The notes under the pieces were generated by a model. It ran no database searches and was not told where the DNA came from. It saw nothing but the letters and a program-made list of their open reading frames with translations. 64,000 nucleotides of DNA. It comes from Phascolarctobacterium sp. Its GTDB lineage: Bacteria > Bacillota > Negativicutes > Acidaminococcales > Acidaminococcaceae. The stretch spans positions 177-64,176 of the forward strand of contig JBJDXD010000026.1 of NCBI GenBank assembly GCA_051866495.1, read 5' to 3'. Made by a program: the position numbers and the translations under genes. This document shows, piece after piece, positions 11,872-20,839 of the stretch (positions are counted from its first letter, which is position 1; every line of letters starts with the position of its first letter).

Positions 11872-12750
11872 TTATTTATTCACGATCTTCCCATAGCACT
11901 CCGGTCTGCGGTCACGGAACAAGCCCCAGCTCAAGCGGTCCTCCGCCAGCTGGTCCAAATCATACTCTGCATAAAGAATTTCTTCCTTATCGCGGCTAGC
12001 ATCCTGAATAAGTGCACCCGTGCCGTCGGTCATAAAGCTAGAGCCATAGAACAAAAGGGAAGACTTTTGCCCAGCATTAGCCTCACAGGGCTCCACACTC
12101 TCAAGGCCAATACGGTTGGCAGCCACCACCGGCATCAGATTAGCCGCACTGTGGCCCTGCATCACGCGACGCCAATGGGGCATACTGTCCGTATCCAAAA
12201 TAGGCTCCGAGCCAATGGCCGTGGGATAAAGCAAAATTTCTGCTCCGTTTAAGGCTAAGCAGCGAGCTGTTTCGCTAAACCATTGATCCCAGCAAATGCC
12301 GATGCCAATTTTTCCAAAGCGGGTGTCGAATACCTTGAAGCCCGTATCACCGGGTTTAAAATAGAATTTTTCCTGATAAAAATGGTCGTCAGGAATATGA
12401 GTCTTGCGATACACGCCCAGATTAGTGCCATCCGCATCAATGCAGGCAATGGAATTATACAGCTGGTTCACATCACGCTCAAAAAAGCTGATGGGCAGCA
12501 CAATTCCCAGCTCCTTCGCCAGTCGCTGACCCATTTGCACAGCCGCATTCTCTGCGGTGGGCTCGGCGTAAGCGTAATACTCATAGCGACGCTCCTGACA
12601 GAAGTAGGGTCGCTCCCACAGCTCCGGCAGCAGCACCAGCTGCGCTCCCTTGCTCGCTGCCTCGCGCACCAGCGCCTCTGCGTGGCGCAAATTATCCTCA
12701 CGGCTCGCAGCGCAGCGCAGCTGCACTGCGGCCACCTTAAGCTTTCTCAT
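11872..12750 (-). CDS. aguB: N-carbamoylputrescine amidase
   Basis: Nitrilase fold: LLPELW, YRKTHIPDD, GICWDQWFSE. Start at ATG 12750 overlaps the aguA stop (ATGA), with GGAGG upstream. Confidence 0.93.
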   Translation of the reverse strand: MRKLKVAAVQLRCAASREDNLRHAEALVREAASKGAQLVLLPELWERPYFCQERRYEYYAYAEPTAENAAVQMGQRLAKELGIVLPISFFERDVNQLYNSIACIDADGTNLGVYRKTHIPDDHFYQEKFYFKPGDTGFKVFDTRFGKIGIGICWDQWFSETARCLALNGAEILLYPTAIGSEPILDTDSMPHWRRVMQGHSAANLMPVVAANRIGLESVEPCEANAGQKSSLLFYGSSFMTDGTGALIQDASRDKEEILYAEYDLDQLAEDRLSWGLFRDRRPECYGKIVNK

Positions 12751-13946
12751 AAGCATCCTCCCTTCGGGATTTGCTGGGTAATGCAGTGAATATTGCCGCC
12801 CCCCGTCAAGATAGCTCTTGCCGGTATTTGCACCACCTTGCGCTCCGGGCAAAGCGCGGCCAGAAGGGCCGCCGCGCGCCCGTCGCTGGCTGCATTTGCA
12901 CCGCCGAAGGCGGGCAGCACCACACTGTCATTACTAAAATAAAAATTCACATAGCTTGCTGCCAGCCTTTCGCCGGCCTCACGCATATCCTCGCCTTCCA
13001 CAAAGTCGAAGCCTGCCACCTCCTCTTCCGTGATGCACACTGGCACATCCGGAATGGGCAGCTTATGGACGACGATTTTGCGTCCCTTGGCATCGGTGAC
13101 CTGCTCCAAATAATCAAGACTGGCCTTGCTCAAAGCGTACTGAGGGTCATCCTCCTTATCGGTCCAAGCCAAAACCACCTCGCCGGGACGAATAAAGGCG
13201 CACACATTATCAACGTGCTCATTGGTCTCGTCGTTGTAAATGCCACGAGGTAACCACAGCACCTTTTCCACATTGAGATATTCCTTGAGCTTTGCTTCAA
13301 TCTGGGCTTGGGTCAAATTGGGATTGCGGCCGGCGCTGAGCAAGCAGGACGCAGTCACCATGGCCGTGCCCTCGCCGTCCACATGAATGGAGCCGCCCTC
13401 TAAAACAAAGGGTGCTGCCTCGTACAAAGCATAGCCCTTTTGCGCTGCAAAAGCGGCGGCAAAGGCATCATCCTGCTCATAGTCAGGATAAAGGCCATCT
13501 ACCTCGCCACCCCAAGCGTTAAAGCGCCAGTTCACGCCCCGCACTTCTCGCCGGGCTCCCCTAGCGCAGCTGCCTACGGCAGCATCAGCTTGAGCTTCAG
13601 AGCCTTCCTCACAGGGCACATCCTTCACGACAAAGGTAGGCCCTATATCCCTAGCCCAGCTGTCGTCCGTAGCAATATCCAAAAGCTCCACATTGGCAAG
13701 GCCCGCTAGCATTTGCTCAGCCCGCTCCCAATGCTTGCTCCTTTTATCGCAAGCCACATACACCCTTTCGCTGGCGCTGATGGCCTTAATCACGGCCGTA
13801 AAGGCCGCGCAGGCGGCCTCCGCCCCAAAGCTCCAGGAGCCGGGGCGCTGGGGCCACACAATGATGCAGCCCTCGTGCTGTTCGTACTCCGCCGGCATGC
13901 GAAAGCCGTCCATTTTTGGTGTTGACTGTGTCAGCATCTTCATCAT
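12747..13946 (-). CDS. aguA: Agmatine deiminase
   Basis: FRMPAEYE, DDSWARDIGP, FNAWGG, LEGGSIHVDG, NEHVDN, GGNIHCITQQ. Confidence 0.94.
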   Translation of the reverse strand: MMKMLTQSTPKMDGFRMPAEYEQHEGCIIVWPQRPGSWSFGAEAACAAFTAVIKAISASERVYVACDKRSKHWERAEQMLAGLANVELLDIATDDSWARDIGPTFVVKDVPCEEGSEAQADAAVGSCARGARREVRGVNWRFNAWGGEVDGLYPDYEQDDAFAAAFAAQKGYALYEAAPFVLEGGSIHVDGEGTAMVTASCLLSAGRNPNLTQAQIEAKLKEYLNVEKVLWLPRGIYNDETNEHVDNVCAFIRPGEVVLAWTDKEDDPQYALSKASLDYLEQVTDAKGRKIVVHKLPIPDVPVCITEEEVAGFDFVEGEDMREAGERLAASYVNFYFSNDSVVLPAFGGANAASDGRAAALLAALCPERKVVQIPARAILTGGGNIHCITQQIPKGGCL

Positions 13947-15184
13947 GAAAGTCGTCCTTTGAAATCCTCATAACCAAAACGGCGCACCAGCTCCGTGCTG
14001 CCATCCTTTTTTAGCAGCACAATATCCGGCAGGGGCATGCCGTTAAAGGTATTATTTTTAACCATGGAATAAATGGCCATGTCTTCAAAAATTAGCTTGT
14101 CGCCCACCTTTATTTCCCGCTCAAAGCTGTAATCCCCAATCACATCACCAGCAAGGCAGGTCATGGAGGACAAGCGATAGGTGTGAGCCTTTTCCTTAGC
14201 CTCAAAGCCATCCCGCAGGGGCGGGCGATAGGGCATTTCCAGCACGTCCGGCATATGGCAGGCCGCGGATGCGTCCAAAATTAGAATATCTAGGCCATTA
14301 TGCACAATGTCCAGCACCTCGCTCACAAGATAGCCTGCATTGAGCGCCACGGCTTCGCCGGGCTCCAAATAAACCTCAACGCCATAGGTGCTGCGAATAT
14401 ATTTCACTAAATTAATCAGCGCCTCTACGTCGTAGTCAGCGCGAGTAATATGATGTCCACCACCCAAATTGAGCCATTTTAATTGGCCAAAAAATTTGCC
14501 AAATTTGGTTTCAAAGGCTTTGAAGGTAGTGATTAAATCATCGGAGTTTTGCTCGCAGAGGGTGTGGAAATGCAGTCCCTCCACGCCCTCAGGCAGCTGC
14601 TCAGGGAAATTGGCCAAGGTTACGCCTAGGCGGGAGCCCACGGCACAGGGGTCGTAAATAGCGTGCTCCGCCTCTTGAGTAGAGCATTCAGGATTGATAC
14701 GAATGCCCACGCTGGCCTTGGAGCTTTGCCAAATGCTCCTGTGCTTTTCGAGCTGGGCAATAGAGTTAAAAACGATGTGGTCGCAAATCTGCACCAGCTC
14801 CTGCATGTCCTCGGTGCGAAAGGCAGGGGCGAAAACATGATTTTCCTTGCCCATTTCCTCGTGGCCAAGGCGTGCTTCAAAAATGCCGCTAGCCGTGGTG
14901 CCCGCCAAATACTCGCCCATAAGGGGATAAAGGCGGAACATGGAGAAGCATTTTTGGGCCAGCAGAATATGACAGTCCGCCTCACGCTGCACCCTTTGCA
15001 GCAGCTCCAAATTTTTAATGAGCCTAGCCTCATCCACCACATAACTAGGAGTAGGCAGTGCCTTTAGCACTGCCTCCTGTTTTTCTTTCAATGTTCTTGC
15101 TTGTAAAGCCTGCAGCTTAGCGTCCGCCTTGGCGGCGTCCACCACATAAGCAGGCATATTTTTTGCGTTACTCATGTTGCTCAC
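13943..15184 (-). CDS. nspC: Carboxy(nor)spermidine decarboxylase
   Basis: LLAQKCFS (PLP lysine), GLHFHTLCEQ, NLGGGHHIT, YLEPGEAV, CHMPDVLEMPYRP, TCLAGDVIGDY. Confidence 0.94.
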   Translation of the reverse strand: MSNMSNAKNMPAYVVDAAKADAKLQALQARTLKEKQEAVLKALPTPSYVVDEARLIKNLELLQRVQREADCHILLAQKCFSMFRLYPLMGEYLAGTTASGIFEARLGHEEMGKENHVFAPAFRTEDMQELVQICDHIVFNSIAQLEKHRSIWQSSKASVGIRINPECSTQEAEHAIYDPCAVGSRLGVTLANFPEQLPEGVEGLHFHTLCEQNSDDLITTFKAFETKFGKFFGQLKWLNLGGGHHITRADYDVEALINLVKYIRSTYGVEVYLEPGEAVALNAGYLVSEVLDIVHNGLDILILDASAACHMPDVLEMPYRPPLRDGFEAKEKAHTYRLSSMTCLAGDVIGDYSFEREIKVGDKLIFEDMAIYSMVKNNTFNGMPLPDIVLLKKDGSTELVRRFGYEDFKGRLS

Positions 15185-16449
15185 TCAACGGTAACAGGGT
15201 TTTCGTCCACAACCCAGGGCAGGCCGAACTTGTTCAGCATATCCATGTACGGATCGGGGTCAAACTCCTCTACGTTAAAGACGCCCTTGCCCTGCCATTG
15301 TTTAGTAATAACCAGTGCGGTACCAATCATAGCAGGCACGCCAGTGGTGTAGCTGATGGCTTGGGAGCCAACCTCCTTGTAGCACTCTTGATGGTCGCAA
15401 ACATTATAGATAAAGATGGTCTTCTTTTCGCCGTTCTTGGTGCCGGTGAAAATACAACCGATATTTGTTTTACCAACGGTGCGAGGTCCCAAGGAAGCAG
15501 GATCCGGCAGCAGAGCCTTCAGGAATTGGATGGGCACGATTTCGTGACCCTCGTACATCATGGGCTTGGTGGACAGCATGCCCACATTTTCCAAGCACTT
15601 CATGTGGGTCAGATAGCTTTGGCCAAAGGTCATGAAGAAGCGAATGCGCTTTACGCCGGGGATATTTTTAGCTAGGGATTCAATTTCCTCATGGTGCAAA
15701 AGGTACATATCCTTCATGCCAACTTGAGGGAAATCATATTCGCGTTTAATGGACATAGCGGGAATTTCAATCCACTTGCCGTTTTCCCAATAGGAGCCAG
15801 GGGCAGAAACCTCGCGCAGGTTAATTTCAGGATTGAAATTGGTAGCAAAGGGATAGCCATGGTCGCCACCGTTGCAGTCCAAAATGTCGATGGTATCGAT
15901 TTGGTCAAAATAATGCTTTAGAGCATAAGCAGAGAAAACGCTGGTTACGCCGGGGTCGAAGCCGGTGCCCAAAAGGGCCATAATGCCAGCCTTTTCAAAT
16001 TTTTCCTTATAAGCCCATTGCCAGGAATAGTCGAAGTAGGCAGAGAAGCCCTCCTCCTTGCAGCGCTTGTCATAAACCTCGCGCCAAGCGGGGTCATCAA
16101 TATTTTCGGGCTCATAGTTGGCAGTGTCGATATAGTCAACCTTGCACTCCAGGCAGGCATCCATAATGGTCAAATCCTGATAGGGCAAAGCCACATTCAA
16201 AACAGCATCCGGCTGATAGGCTTTAATTAAAGCAACCAGCTCGTCCTTATTATCTGCGTCCACCTTGGCAGTGGTGATTTTGGTAGTGGTAGTGGGCTGC
16301 AGCTTTGCAGCCACAGCGTCGCATTTGGATTTAGTGCGGCTAGCAATGCACAGCTCGGTAAAAACCTCACTATTTTGGCAGCATTTGGCGATAGCTACGC
16401 CGGCAACACCGCCGCAGCCGATTACTAATAATTTACTCATACTCTTCAT
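15181..16449 (-). CDS. Carboxy(nor)spermidine dehydrogenase (saccharopine dehydrogenase family)
   Basis: VIGCGGVAG Rossmann motif, NVALPYQDLTIMDAC, GFDPGVTS, FATNFNPEINLRE; directly upstream of nspC. Confidence 0.92.
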   Translation of the reverse strand: MKSMSKLLVIGCGGVAGVAIAKCCQNSEVFTELCIASRTKSKCDAVAAKLQPTTTTKITTAKVDADNKDELVALIKAYQPDAVLNVALPYQDLTIMDACLECKVDYIDTANYEPENIDDPAWREVYDKRCKEEGFSAYFDYSWQWAYKEKFEKAGIMALLGTGFDPGVTSVFSAYALKHYFDQIDTIDILDCNGGDHGYPFATNFNPEINLREVSAPGSYWENGKWIEIPAMSIKREYDFPQVGMKDMYLLHHEEIESLAKNIPGVKRIRFFMTFGQSYLTHMKCLENVGMLSTKPMMYEGHEIVPIQFLKALLPDPASLGPRTVGKTNIGCIFTGTKNGEKKTIFIYNVCDHQECYKEVGSQAISYTTGVPAMIGTALVITKQWQGKGVFNVEEFDPDPYMDMLNKFGLPWVVDENPVTVE

Positions 16450-16474
16450 CTCCTATCGAATTATACATTATCCT

Positions 16475-16577
16475 TAAAACAGCTAGAAGGGGTCAGATAC
16501 GCGAAAGGGCGACGACGGCGTACTAGAGGTACGTCTAGGAGCCCTGACAAAGTAGATGGCCCCTTATAGCTGTTTTA
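16475..16577. repeat. Structured intergenic repeat, copy 1 (long multi-stem hairpin)
   Basis: Nested inverted repeats AAAACAGCTA/TAGCTGTTTT, GGGGTCA/TGGCCCC, TAC/GTA, GGGC/GCCC, CGTAC/GTACG; homologous to 17469-17569. Confidence 0.8.
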
Positions 16578-17429
16578 CTTTTCTTCTTCTTCTAGCATAT
16601 CCTCAACATACTTGGGTAGCATAAAGGCTCCCTTATGCAGATTGGCGGAATAATACCAGGTCTTGATGCCCCTTGCCTTCCACTTCACGGGCTCGAAATC
16701 CTTCAAAGGATGGTATTTTTTCGAGGCAAAGCCAAAGAGCCAGTAGCCGGAGGGGCAGGTGGGAATGGCTGCCTGATACACGCGGCTAATGGGAAAGCTG
16801 TGGCTAGCCTTGCGGTGCATGGCACGACAGGTTTCCTCATCCTCATCATAGAAGGGACTGCCATGCTGGTACACCATGATGCCGTCCTCCTTGAGGGCGC
16901 GGAAGCAGTTACCATAAAACTCCTTGGTAAAAAGTCCTGCTGCATGGCCCAAGGGGTCGATGGCATCGTTAATAATCAAATCATATTCATTCACCTTGGA
17001 GCGCAAAAAACGCAAGCCGTTAGCGTTAAAAATCGTTACGCGGGCATCGTCAAGGCCAACGGCGTTGTCGGGGAAAAAGTCACGGCACACATCGATGAAC
17101 ACATGGTCCGTCTCCACAACGTCGATTTCTTCAATCTCAGGATAGCGGGACAGCTCGCGGGCTACACCGCCATCGCCACCGCCGATAACCAGCACCTTTT
17201 TCACATGGGGATGCACGGCCATGGGCACATGCACAATCATCTCGTCATAAATAAATTCGTCCTTTTGGGAAAAGACGATGGTGCCATCGCAGGCGATAAA
17301 GCGACCAAATTCCTTAGAGTCGAAAACGTCAATCCGTTGAAAATCCGTGTCCTCCCCAAATAATTGCTTTTCAATTTTTATATCCAGCTTCACATCATCC
17401 GTGTGGTAATCGGAAAACCAAAGCTCCAT
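16575..17429 (-). CDS. speE: Polyamine aminopropyltransferase (spermidine synthase family)
   Basis: MELWFSD, FIYDEMIVHVPM, VLVIGGGDGG, IINDAIDP. Confidence 0.92.
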   Translation of the reverse strand: MELWFSDYHTDDVKLDIKIEKQLFGEDTDFQRIDVFDSKEFGRFIACDGTIVFSQKDEFIYDEMIVHVPMAVHPHVKKVLVIGGGDGGVARELSRYPEIEEIDVVETDHVFIDVCRDFFPDNAVGLDDARVTIFNANGLRFLRSKVNEYDLIINDAIDPLGHAAGLFTKEFYGNCFRALKEDGIMVYQHGSPFYDEDEETCRAMHRKASHSFPISRVYQAAIPTCPSGYWLFGFASKKYHPLKDFEPVKWKARGIKTWYYSANLHKGAFMLPKYVEDMLEEEEK

Positions 17430-17468
17430 TCCATCACAACCTTACAAACTCTTTTAATCAGCTCAACA

Positions 17469-17569
17469 AGATGTGTCAGAAAGTACCAGATGCGCGAAAC
17501 AGCGACGAAGGCGTACTAGAAGTACGTCTAGGAGCTGTGCCAAAGCAGATGGTGCTTTATCACGCATCT
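17469..17569. repeat. Structured intergenic repeat, copy 2
   Basis: AGATGTG/CGCATCT, AGTACCA/TGGTGCT, TGC/GCA, CAGC/GCTG, CGTAC/GTACG; same loop sequences as copy 1. Confidence 0.8.
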
Positions 17570-19016
17570 ACACAAGTACATTAATATTATTAACCTCAGG
17601 ATCTTCGGGCCCCTGCATAGAGCACCCCTTCTCCTTAGCGTAGATTATGTACTCAATAATCTCCTTAGTAATAACCTCGCCGGGTGCCAAAATAGGAATG
17701 CCCGGAGGATAGCACATTACGAACTCGGAGCAAATTCTGCCCGCCGTCTCCCGAATGGGCAGGGGCTCATCCTTGGCATAAAAGGCCTCCTGGGGCGATA
17801 CAACCACCTGGGGCGCAATATATTCCGTATTCAGCATCTTGGACGGGTCGCGGGAGTATAAGCGTTTAATATCCGCCAATGCACCCACCAAGCGCTCAAT
17901 ATCCTGAATCCTGTCGCCGATGGAGACATAGGCTAGGATATTAGCAATATCGCCAAACTCAATTTGAATATCGTATTCGTCACGAAGCAAATCGTAAACC
18001 TCGATACCGGCCAGACCAATATCGCGAGTATAAACGGAGAGCTTGGTCACGTCAAAATCATAAATGCTGCTACCGTTCTTCAGCTCCTGACCATAGGCAT
18101 AATAGCCGCCGATGGAATTGATTTCCTCGCGAGCGTACTCCGCCATCTCGGCCACCTTGGCAAAGGAGGTTTCTCCCCGCATGTACAGATTACGGCGGGA
18201 AATATCAAGGCTGGAAAGCAACAAATAGGAAGCACTGGTAGTCTGGGTGAGGTTAATAATCTGGCTCACATATTCCCAGTTCACATTGGGACCAGTTAAA
18301 AGCAAGGAGCTCTGGGTGAGACTACCACCGGATTTGTGCATGGAAACGGAGGCCATATCCGCTCCGGCCGCCATAGCATTCACCGGCATATTAGGGCCAA
18401 AGTAAAAATGGGTACCGTGGGCCTCGTCCACCAAGCACAGCATGTTATGAGCATGGGCCAGCTTCACAATGGAGCGCAAATCGGAGCAGATGCCATAATA
18501 GGTAGGATTATTCACCAAAACCGCCTTGGCATCTGGATTGGCCTTGATAGCCTTTTCCACCTCGCTCAGCTCCATACCTAGGGAAATACCCAGCTTGCTA
18601 TCCACCTCAGGGTTAATATATACAGGTATCGCGCCGTTTAAAACCAGCGCGTTAATCACGCTCTTATGCACGTTGCGCGGCAAAATAATCTTATCCCCGG
18701 CCTTGGTGGAAGACAGCACCATGCTTTGCACGGAGGAGGTAGTCCCTCCCACCATAAAAAAGGCATGGGCAGCCCCAAAGGCTTCTGCCGCCAGCTGCTC
18801 CGCATCCCGAATAACCGAAACAGGATGGCATAAATTATCCAAGGGCTTCATGGAATTGACGTCCAAATTGACACATTTTTCTCCAAGAAGCTCCCGCAGC
18901 TCCGGATTGCCACGGCCACGCTTGTGCCCGGGCACATCAAAGGGTACCACGCGCTTTTTACGAAAGGCCTCCAGGGCCTCGTAAATAGGCGCTGATAGTT
19001 GCGAAAGTTTCTCCAT
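17568..19016 (-). CDS. speA: Arginine decarboxylase (Orn/Lys/Arg decarboxylase, fold type I)
   Basis: FDVPGHKRGRG, VGGTTSSVQ, LVDEAHG, VSMHKSGGSLTQSS, YPPGIPILAPGE. Arginine specificity is inferred from the aguA/aguB context. Confidence 0.88.
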   Translation of the reverse strand: MEKLSQLSAPIYEALEAFRKKRVVPFDVPGHKRGRGNPELRELLGEKCVNLDVNSMKPLDNLCHPVSVIRDAEQLAAEAFGAAHAFFMVGGTTSSVQSMVLSSTKAGDKIILPRNVHKSVINALVLNGAIPVYINPEVDSKLGISLGMELSEVEKAIKANPDAKAVLVNNPTYYGICSDLRSIVKLAHAHNMLCLVDEAHGTHFYFGPNMPVNAMAAGADMASVSMHKSGGSLTQSSLLLTGPNVNWEYVSQIINLTQTTSASYLLLSSLDISRRNLYMRGETSFAKVAEMAEYAREEINSIGGYYAYGQELKNGSSIYDFDVTKLSVYTRDIGLAGIEVYDLLRDEYDIQIEFGDIANILAYVSIGDRIQDIERLVGALADIKRLYSRDPSKMLNTEYIAPQVVVSPQEAFYAKDEPLPIRETAGRICSEFVMCYPPGIPILAPGEVITKEIIEYIIYAKEKGCSMQGPEDPEVNNINVLV

Positions 19017-19030
19017 AATCCGTTCTCCCC

Positions 19031-19303
19031 AACAAATAAATAAAAGACAGGTGCGCTAAACATCACCTGTCTTTGATAATTCCCCTACACGTTTTTTTGA
19101 TAGACTACGATTCTTAGGGCGCATCTTACTTTCAGAGTTTGTAAGCAAATACCTTCACTACTCTTATTGACCGTTTCACAAGTGATACTGATTTTGATTG
19201 CTAGCAATCACCTTATAAAATTTGAGCGTGAGCTCAATCAATAATGTGGCCCGAGGCCACTCCGGCAGCAGTCCCGCCTGTCCGTATGGGCTTAACTATT
19301 ATA
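19031..19303 (-). promoter_or_regulatory. Structured 5' leader with terminator/attenuator upstream of the polyamine operon
   Basis: TATAAT at 19303-19298; hairpins at 19246-19260 and 19222-19237; perfect 16-bp palindrome at 19195-19210; 11-bp terminator stem 19043-19053/19064-19074 with a U-rich tail ending about 15 nt before the speA start. Confidence 0.65.
19056..19124 (-). CDS. Putative Arg/Lys-rich leader peptide (MRPKNRSLSKKRVGELSKTGDV)
   Basis: 22-codon ORF whose TAG lies in the loop of the terminator hairpin. The RBS is weak. Confidence 0.35.
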   Translation of the reverse strand: MRPKNRSLSKKRVGELSKTGDV

Positions 19304-19420
19304 AAAATAGTGGACTAATATTTGCATGAAAGCAAGCTGCATTCATGTAATTTTATTGTAGCATTTTTATACTGTTTCAGCAAGGGCTTTAACAAAATAA
19401 AAGGTATTAACCATTCCGTA

Positions 19421-20839
19421 TTAACGACGATTACGCCTATCACGACCACTCTGGCTGTAGAAACGGCGTTTATCCTCATACATGAGCATTTCCGCAGTTT
19501 TAATAAGCTCTTCCATGGAACGTTCCCCGCAGCTGTGGCTGTGACCCACCGAGACGAAATAGCCTGCTGCATTAATACGCTCCACCAATGTTTTCAGGCC
19601 TGTAGTAACCTGAACATACTCCATATCCTGAGCCAAAACCACAAACTCGTCGCCGCCAATGCGGTACACATGCCTATCCCCAAATTGGGTGCGCATCAAG
19701 GAGGCCACTGTTTGCAGCATTTTATCGCCAGCAGCATGGCCTTGGGTATTATTCAATTCGTGCAGACCATTCACATCAACGTAAATACAGCAAATGTCAT
19801 TATTGGGGGACACAGGCTCTAAAATCTTTTTTTCAAAGCAGTTGCGATTTAAGCAGCCTGTAAGAGCATCACGTTCTGCCAGGCGCTGCTGCTGAGCCAG
19901 CTCCTTGCGGGAGGTGCGCTCCAGCCAAATAAAATAGCTGGACAAAAGCAAAAGCTGCCCCGCCAAGAAAATGAGCAGTAAAATACTAATTTTATTGGCG
20001 CGAGCAAAGGCTATTTCTTCGGGCACGAAAACCGCAATGCGCCAATTATTGATGGAAGCTGGTCGATAATAGAAGCAGCCATATTCACCTGTTACAGAGG
20101 ACTTTAAAATACTCTGTCCCGCTTCACCGGCAAGCAGCTTTTGACGAATTTCCTCGTTACTGTCACCGGATTTAATATCCCTAGCAGATACATCCCAAAA
20201 ATTGCCTAGCTGTTTGCGATGAGTATTAAGGATAAACTCACCGGTTTTACCATCTATAATAAAGAATTTTGCCTGTCCTTGATAAATATTTTCGTTCATG
20301 AAAGCAGGCAATGTGTTTAAATTAATGACACCATACAGCATACCCACGGTTTTTTTGTCCTTCACCACGGGCACAAAATTACGCAGAACATAGATACTCG
20401 GATCAAAAATGGCCCGCACCCTGTCAGTTATGTGAGCCCCCTTAGCTGCCTCTTCGTCAAAAAACAGCTTGCCATGAACATCTAAAACGCCTTTATTGGG
20501 CCACACCAGCCTGTCATCGGGCAATAAAAGACCTATGTTCTTCATTAAGGTATCGGCCTTAAACTCAGTGATAATTTCCCGTGCCACAGGCCCATCAAGC
20601 TGCTCCTGCTTGCTGATAATATTCCCTAGGGTTAACAAAATTTCTCTATCAATATCCACCCTACGGGTCAATTCTTCGTCAACCCGATTGGCGGAGCGCT
20701 TTAAAGAACCCCAAGCAGCCTCCTCCTGCATCACACCAATTTGATAAGATACAAATACGGACAATACAAAAAGGGTCAGAATAACGACGCAGGTAATGTG
20801 TATTTTTCGGGTATAATTTAAGTTAAGGGTCTTTTTCAT
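19421..20839 (-). CDS. Membrane-bound diguanylate cyclase (Cache-like sensor + GGDEF)
   Basis: Two transmembrane helices flanking an extracytoplasmic domain, DALTGCLNR, DVNGLHELNNTQGHAAGD, RIGGDEF. Confidence 0.9.
   Translation of the reverse strand: MKKTLNLNYTRKIHITCVVILTLFVLSVFVSYQIGVMQEEAAWGSLKRSANRVDEELTRRVDIDREILLTLGNIISKQEQLDGPVAREIITEFKADTLMKNIGLLLPDDRLVWPNKGVLDVHGKLFFDEEAAKGAHITDRVRAIFDPSIYVLRNFVPVVKDKKTVGMLYGVINLNTLPAFMNENIYQGQAKFFIIDGKTGEFILNTHRKQLGNFWDVSARDIKSGDSNEEIRQKLLAGEAGQSILKSSVTGEYGCFYYRPASINNWRIAVFVPEEIAFARANKISILLLIFLAGQLLLLSSYFIWLERTSRKELAQQQRLAERDALTGCLNRNCFEKKILEPVSPNNDICCIYVDVNGLHELNNTQGHAAGDKMLQTVASLMRTQFGDRHVYRIGGDEFVVLAQDMEYVQVTTGLKTLVERINAAGYFVSVGHSHSCGERSMEELIKTAEMLMYEDKRRFYSQSGRDRRNRR

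Follow-up and report, generated by a model that had tools for sequence, protein, structure and literature searches.

What controls transcription of the polyamine operon in the gut bacterium Phascolarctobacterium sp.? The operon begins with a speA-type decarboxylase gene, and its leader is about 330 nt long (roughly 19348-19017). We addressed this question in a window of 64,000 nt from contig JBJDXD010000026.1 (assembly GCA_051866495.1); coordinates are those of the window, and the leader, the operon, and the other features described here lie on its minus strand. A preliminary description of the locus proposed an attenuator in which an arginine- and lysine-rich leader peptide acts on a terminator next to speA. 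We agree with the idea of premature termination within a long leader, but not with the peptide mechanism, as the proposed upstream open reading frame (uORF) is not conserved. Instead, the leader is an extended RNA of the ldcC family that probably exerts OFF-type terminator control over the six genes of the operon.

The leader carries the ldcC motif

The 5' part of the leader (19262-19316) matches the ldcC motif, also known as the Streptococcus sRNA SpF59 (Rfam RF02440), over the full length of the model (positions 1-54), with a score of 58.2 bits (gathering score 37.2) and an E value of 9e-10. In a scan at E ≤ 10, this was the only match that we consider real. The matches to SAM-II (E = 7.3) and to sR40 (E = 9.1) were noise, and neither T-box nor SAM-I (RF00162) gave an Rfam match at E ≤ 10 in 18800-19600.

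The ldcC motif was described as a 54-nt hairpin with a bulge, conserved nucleotides, and a possible pseudoknot, and it is widespread in Firmicutes (Weinberg et al., 2017, PMC5737381). It precedes potA and genes for arginine, ornithine, and S-adenosylmethionine (SAM) decarboxylases, and a role in polyamine homeostasis was suggested (PMC5737381). The leader in the window shares these features: besides scoring above the gathering threshold, it has the bulged hairpin and the invariant CCAUACGGACAG, and it is the 5' untranslated region of a gene for a decarboxylase of the arginine/ornithine/lysine type in a Firmicute. The hairpin consists of P1a and P1b with the bulge UAAGCCCAUACGGACAGGC, and the arm also contains P1c and the invariant loop CAUACGGACA. 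All three of these helices show compensatory changes in both the genome and the metagenome alignments (described below), and G(G/C)C:G(C/G)C pairs within the bulge covary as well (24 CG versus 23 GC). The leader is therefore a member of the ldcC-motif RNA family, which is an orphan riboswitch candidate.

The conserved RNA extends far beyond the catalogued motif

The published motif and the Rfam model are a 54-nt hairpin, whereas here this hairpin forms one arm of a larger conserved RNA (about 225 nt, 19340-19121) that has at least 10 helices. In other words, the catalogued model spans only about a quarter of the RNA. Conservation continues for about 150 nt on the 3' side of the Rfam motif in Phascolarctobacterium, Roseburia, Coprococcus, Blautia, Faecalibacterium, Acidaminococcus, and others. 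After the motif come, in order, a variable hairpin, UUAUUGAUUGAG-loop-CUCAAAUUUUAUAAG, one or two variable hairpins, ACUUGUGAAACGGUCAAUAAGAGUAGU, and strands that pair back to the 5' end. The closing helices, the conserved 3' core, and the terminator/antiterminator platform all lie outside the published model, and we did not find a paper that describes this extension in the literature that we searched.

To compare leaders, we used 80 speA loci (with labels such as L001), whose leaders we read individually. Folding of aligned sequences with RNAalifold yielded two long-range helices, UUAUUGAU:GUCAAUAA and UUUUAUAAG:CUUGUGAAA. We then used a covariance model, R1, of 169 positions and 54 pairs, which was built from 21 sequences and excluded both the window and Phascolarctobacterium. 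R1 has a single match in the 64-kb window, in the leader (19317-19156; 114 bits, E = 3.3e-23, model positions 1-169). It also matches 64 of the 80 speA loci, and in every one of these 64 the match is upstream of speA and on the same strand.

The pairs in R1 are well supported in two sets of sequences. As MAFFT left a variable hairpin (P3) out of register, the counts come from covariance-model alignments, which are fitted to the structure. In the genome set, standard pairs make up 93.4% of cells, and compensatory changes occur at 36 of the 54 pairs; none of 500 shuffles was as good, and controls in which the pairing was slid were 30-52% paired. A second, separate set came from a scan of metagenomes for the ldcC core. 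Here 94.3% of cells are paired, 27 of the 54 pairs show compensatory changes, and the slid controls were 26-45% paired. All four blocks of the 3' domain are present in 95 of the 107 metagenome matches to the core. (A few regular-expression matches to the core were spurious: L032:1451 and L058:1674 among the speA loci, and L102 and L164 in the metagenome set.) Thus, the leader has a conserved structure with covariation support, as expected for a riboswitch aptamer.

Within the window, we checked the R1 pairs base by base across the core (19156-19317), which comprises the ldcC arm and P2 to P7. In P2 (19269-19265 with 19161-19157), the invariant CUGCCG on the 3' side of the motif hairpin pairs with GUAGU of the 3' domain; it has 5 bp and some covariation. 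A CGG:CCG pseudoknot could form with the bulge as well, and covariation cannot probe this pairing. P3 is formed by 19260-19255 with 19251-19246 and P5 by 19236-19232 with 19227-19223. P4 (UUAUUGAU:GUCAAUAA, 19244-19237 with 19171-19164) and P6 (UUUUAUAAG:CUUGUGAAA, 19220-19212 with 19182-19174) are invariant in sequence and are the two helices found with RNAalifold. Another R1 helix, P8, is absent from the window RNA. The additional hairpins that the preliminary description saw upstream of the terminator do exist, and they are P3 and P5.

P7 accounts for another feature of that description, a perfect 16-bp palindrome (TGATTGCTAGCAATCA, 19195-19210), which is indeed present. Aligned to R1, the palindrome is a hairpin, GAUUG-CUAG-CAAUC. 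In relatives the same site reads GGUUACUUUAUAACC, GAUUACUUAUCAUC, or GAUUAGCCAUUAAUC, and the second pair varies between GC (35 sequences) and AU (19 sequences). Judging from these alignments, the RNA hairpin is conserved and the symmetry of the DNA is not. The palindrome is of interest solely because a covarying hairpin occupies this site in relatives.

The core is closed by two more helices. Duplex folding puts their 5' strands at 19318-19340 (P-1, 19340-19327; P0, GCAAAUAU, 19325-19318) and their 3' strands, which we also checked by base, at 19121-19153 (P0, 19153-19145; P-1, 19134-19121). The closing duplex has a predicted energy of −21.3 kcal/mol (z = −5.1), and none of 500 shuffles reached this value. 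Most of 45 relatives show significant (P ≤ 0.05) complementarity between the 5' and 3' ends, and some of these have compensating variants such as GCAAUA:UAUUGC or CAAG:CUUG. There are two layouts of the closing helices, CUUUCA..GCAAAUAU versus AGAGUCU..GCAAU, and no single model fits all of the lineages.

Several local pairings overlap these helices. A CTTAC/GTAAG hairpin had been noted just before the start codon of the uORF. Both of its strands are present (CUUAC, 19145-19141; GUAAG, 19129-19125), and their local pairing, which is not retained in L001, would replace the conserved long-range one. A local helix between AGAGU (19164-19160) and ACUCU (19138-19134) could not coexist with P2 and part of P-1; in L024 and L066, T-to-C and A-to-G changes occur together, in agreement with this helix. 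In another lineage, a 5' AGAGUCU pairs with AGACUCU instead. At the very 5' end, a CAUGAA/UUCAUG hairpin (19347-19342 with 19330-19325) has a sequence that is conserved across the Phascolarctobacterium/Roseburia group. This hairpin overlaps the closing helices P-1 and P0 and competes with them, and it could be a 5' stabiliser or a part of the switch.

The motif arm itself is sometimes missing. In seven leaders (L035, L036, L063, L065, L076, L028, and L058), the conserved 3' core and a terminator are retained without an arm that scores with RF02440, so the ldcC hairpin is dispensable in some lineages. In L058, the RNA element precedes speD-speA.

A terminator and a putative competing antiterminator

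The terminator that was reported near the start of speA is present (19031-19074). Its 11-bp stem pairs AAAGACAGGUG (19074-19064) with CACCUGUCUUU (19053-19043) around a 10-nt loop and is followed by the U-rich tail UAUUUAUUUGUU. (A consensus scanner missed it because the loop exceeds 8 nt.) It folds at −17.1 kcal/mol (z = −3.65), and none of 200 shuffles was as stable. The stem ends 26 nt before the speA start codon (ATG, 19016-19014), and only the ribosome-binding site (GGGGAG, 19030-19025) lies in between. Of 58 related leaders, 57 have an intrinsic terminator at the equivalent place, which is 50-200 nt past the core.

The 5' arm of the terminator has a second potential partner within the core. 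UAUCACUUGU (19187-19178), which overlaps the 3' strand of P6, is complementary to ACAGGUGAUG (19070-19061). This duplex of 10 bp has a predicted energy of −12.1 kcal/mol, as compared to −15.7 kcal/mol for the terminator stem, and when 327 windows of the leader were compared, UAUCACUUGU paired best with the 5' arm. The terminator 5' arms of relatives share RCARGU(G), which is the complement of the invariant ACUUGUG. Across 52 leaders, with about 300 windows tested in each, the CUUGUG segment ranks first as a partner for the 5' arm in 26, including the window, and at most one site ranks above it in 37, versus a chance expectation of about 5%. In L035, L037, and L072 the flank of this segment is different and the terminator arm has changed to match. 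By complementarity and conservation, then, the terminator and the putative antiterminator appear to be mutually exclusive.

Proposed mechanism and signal

We propose that a folded and locked core would sequester the 3' strand of P6; the terminator would then form, and transcription would stop before speA (OFF). In a core that is not locked, this strand would be free to pair with the 5' arm of the terminator, and RNA polymerase would read through (ON). As the folded core hides the antiterminator strand, this is the logic of an OFF switch, and the RNA probably switches the polyamine operon off via the transcription terminator. The effector that locks the core, by binding directly to the RNA, would be an end product of the pathway, such as spermidine or putrescine.

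The genes downstream of the RNA point to this type of signal. In 80 metagenome loci, the RNA precedes speA (51 loci), speD (about 14), potA (about 8), or a gene similar to carboxyspermidine dehydrogenase (3). Gene identities were supported by scores such as 395 bits for SAM decarboxylase (TIGR03331) and 569 bits for PotA (NF043075). This gene set, with decarboxylases including SAM decarboxylase and with PotA, matches the published list for the ldcC motif, and the speD and potA copies of the RNA carry terminators too. Because one OFF-type element seems to control genes for both synthesis and uptake, a polyamine end product is the likely signal. The preliminary description had offered, as a fallback, that the upstream hairpins form a polyamine-sensing RNA. 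The RF02440 match and the conserved 3' domain favor a polyamine-related sensing RNA, and we infer that the sensing is direct.

A natural spermidine riboswitch has been reported: it is a variant of SAM-I, and it occurs in the leaders of ldcC-, speE-, and speB-type genes in Firmicutes (Salvail et al., 2023, PMC10853860). It is an OFF switch with an intrinsic terminator and a competing antiterminator, it responds to spermidine and close analogues, and it has 13 known representatives (PMC10853860). The logic that we propose for the window RNA is the same, but the fold is unrelated: the conserved sequences and helices differ, and the window RNA does not match SAM-I. Also, the SAM-I variant is rare, while RNAs of the window type are common in gut Clostridia and Negativicutes. 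We tentatively suggest that the RNA of about 225 nt might be the aptamer of a second natural class of polyamine riboswitch, unrelated to the SAM-I-derived class and far more widespread.

This would matter because polyamines are obvious candidates for riboswitch ligands, yet the sole validated natural class is the rare SAM-I variant (PMC10853860). If our suggestion is correct, then in gut Clostridia and Negativicutes the class turns off polyamine uptake (potA) as well as synthesis (speA, speD, and the carboxyspermidine pathway), and the catalogued ldcC arm is an accessory branch that some members lack. Furthermore, if the RNA of about 225 nt is the functional unit, then binding tests on the 54-nt hairpin would use an incomplete aptamer.

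Several considerations weigh against the proposed switch. First, nearest-neighbour folding of the full leader favors the terminator state over the antiterminator state by about 15 kcal/mol, so read-through would require kinetic control or a core that is unfolded or unlocked. The antiterminator also crosses P4, P2, and P0. Second, for both sets of sequences, covariation was counted on model-fitted alignments, which favors R1. P4 and P6 are nearly invariant, with just 1-2 compensatory cases each in the metagenome set, and because of this invariance, covariation supports these two helices only weakly. Third, the fold is ambiguous at two places (P2 versus AGAGU:ACUCU, and the 5' hairpin versus P-1). 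Fourth, contigs from RNA libraries that cover the leader (see below) are uninformative as to termination or the start site, and they may include DNA. Finally, in the literature that we searched, we found neither a ligand for the ldcC family nor newer work on it since 2017.

Alternative explanations

One alternative is that the conserved RNA does not sense a metabolite directly but is the binding site of a polyamine-responsive RNA-binding protein that causes termination or antitermination. The long invariant stretches (CCAUACGGACAG, UUAUUGAUUGAG, AAAUUUUAUAAG, and ACUUGUGAAACGGUCAAUAAGAGUAGU) are typical of specific recognition, whether by a protein or by a ligand pocket, and the lack of any report that we could find of a ligand since the motif was described in 2017 (PMC5737381) would fit as well. 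However, no candidate gene for an RNA-binding regulator travels with the element, as its neighbours are only biosynthetic and transport genes. Also, the RNA is found in distant lineages (Negativicutes, Lachnospiraceae, Oscillospiraceae, and Christensenellaceae) and in front of different operons, which is easier to explain with a self-contained sensor. Overall, we consider a protein-binding site to be unlikely.

A second possibility is that the 5' part is chiefly a trans-acting small RNA (sRNA), the "SpF59 sRNA," which would end at 19260-19246 or 19237-19222, and that the remainder of the leader is unrelated to it. Rfam does give RF02440 the type "Gene; sRNA," and our scanner reported two weak terminator-like hairpins with U-poor tails directly after the motif. 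But these two hairpins are P3 and P5, which are enclosed by long-range helices, and both conservation and covariation run on for another 150 nt. The element is also upstream of polyamine genes, on the same strand, in all 64 of the matched loci, and a prematurely terminated leader would itself show up as a small RNA in transcript surveys. A separate sRNA is therefore very unlikely.

Third, there is the leader peptide, in which ribosomes on the uORF, stalled or not according to arginine/lysine or polyamine status, would mask the 5' arm of the terminator. The uORF (MRPKNRSLSKKRVGELSKTGDV*, 19056-19124) exists as described: it has 22 codons, with three for arginine and four for lysine, and it traverses the 5' arm of the terminator and stops in the loop (TAG, 19058-19056). 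Leader peptides that sense polyamines or ornithine occur elsewhere. For example, SpeFL of E. coli speF, a conserved arrest peptide, is translated, detects ornithine on the ribosome, and works through Rho. Like SpeFL, the element in the window acts in cis, in the leader of an operon for a decarboxylase of the polyamine pathway, and would control premature termination. In contrast to SpeFL, the ORF in the window is not conserved and has no ribosome-binding site, and the terminator is intrinsic.

The preliminary description named conservation in relatives as a check on its peptide, and this comparison goes against it. Within the genus, the uORF segment is 28-36% identical to that of the window, as compared to 70-89% for the aptamer part and 77-82% for speA DNA, so it is the least conserved part of the leader. 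In L001, whose SpeA is 95% identical, TTG CGT CGA TAA replaces the uORF and the start codon is lost, and L004 has no corresponding ORF. Just 16 of 58 leaders have an ORF of at least 8 amino acids that enters the terminator; 9 of these start with ATG, and they do not share a peptide sequence. Also, the AUG of the uORF is not preceded by a Shine-Dalgarno sequence (GAAAGUAAG-AUG), and its U and G are paired in the 3' strand of the closing helix P-1. The basic residues are explained by an A-rich spacer (AAA, AAG, AGA, and CGU codons). Because the uORF is not conserved, lacks a ribosome-binding site, and has a paired start codon, we reject this reading as highly improbable, and we judge that the uORF is open by chance, in the variable stretch that separates the RNA from the terminator.

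Finally, we give almost no credence to the idea that the palindrome is a DNA operator for a dimeric repressor of the operon: although its dyad symmetry is perfect and it is the sole such palindrome in the 64-kb window, chance alone predicts about one in a sequence of this length, the site is some 140 nt downstream of the promoter, and relatives keep the hairpin by compensatory changes rather than keeping the DNA symmetry or sequence (L003 has TGATTAGCCATTAATCA; others have GGTTACTTTATAACC).

With the structured RNA as the preferred explanation, the annotation of the locus changes: the operon would be under a structured RNA attenuator and not a leader peptide, and the palindrome and the hairpins would be parts of this RNA.

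Promoter and extent of the leader

From the sequence, we predict a promoter at 19355-19383, with a −35 box (TTGCTG, 19383-19378), a 14-nt gap, and an extended −10 box (TGCTACAAT, 19363-19355). A TGnTAnAnT box lies 7-8 nt on the 5' side of the conserved UACAUGAAUG in L001, L003, L004, and L005, so the layout of the promoter is conserved. Transcription would then start near 19348. The range given in the preliminary description (19016-19303) omits the 5' 45 nt of the RNA element.

One relative seems to have lost the RNA. In L002 (3900-4003), a Phascolarctobacterium metagenome-assembled genome with a SpeA that is 94% identical, the homologous promoter is retained and the leader RNA of about 270 nt is gone. 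The promoter runs straight into a hairpin with a U run (GGGACAGA..UCUGUCC) and then speA, and the L002 leader matches neither R1 nor RF02440. The regulatory RNA thus seems to have been deleted naturally in L002, and expression may be constitutive as a result. In L002, a gene for acetolactate synthase directly adjoins the speA promoter.

The operon and its surroundings

Based on matches to Pfam and NCBIfam, the polyamine operon (11872-19030) has six genes: speA, which encodes a decarboxylase of 482 amino acids (OKR_DC_1, of the B. subtilis SpeA type; 19016-17568); speE (17429-16575); a gene similar to carboxy(nor)spermidine dehydrogenase (16449-15181); nspC (15184-13943); aguA, for agmatine deiminase (13946-12747); and aguB, for a CN-hydrolase similar to N-carbamoylputrescine amidase (12852-11872). 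Given their orientation and spacing, the six genes are presumably transcribed together. The nearest relatives of SpeA are from Phascolarctobacterium records (90-95% identity).

A gene for a dCache-GGDEF diguanylate cyclase (19421-20839) lies between acetolactate synthase genes and the polyamine leader. The intergenic region between this gene and speA is 404 nt and includes the promoter. We saw no clear terminator in the window between the GGDEF stop codon and the leader promoter.

The leader is covered by contigs that were assembled from pig-gut and other metatranscriptome RNA libraries. One contig ends at 19353, near the predicted start of transcription, and we give this no weight. At 19144-19183, three pig-gut metatranscriptome assemblies show a jump in summed contig depth, to 16-70. 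As the flanks of these contigs differ from the window, we attribute the jump to other species' copies of the invariant core ACUUGUGAAACGGUCAAUAAGAGUAGU; the ldcC RNA family is abundant in gut RNA libraries.

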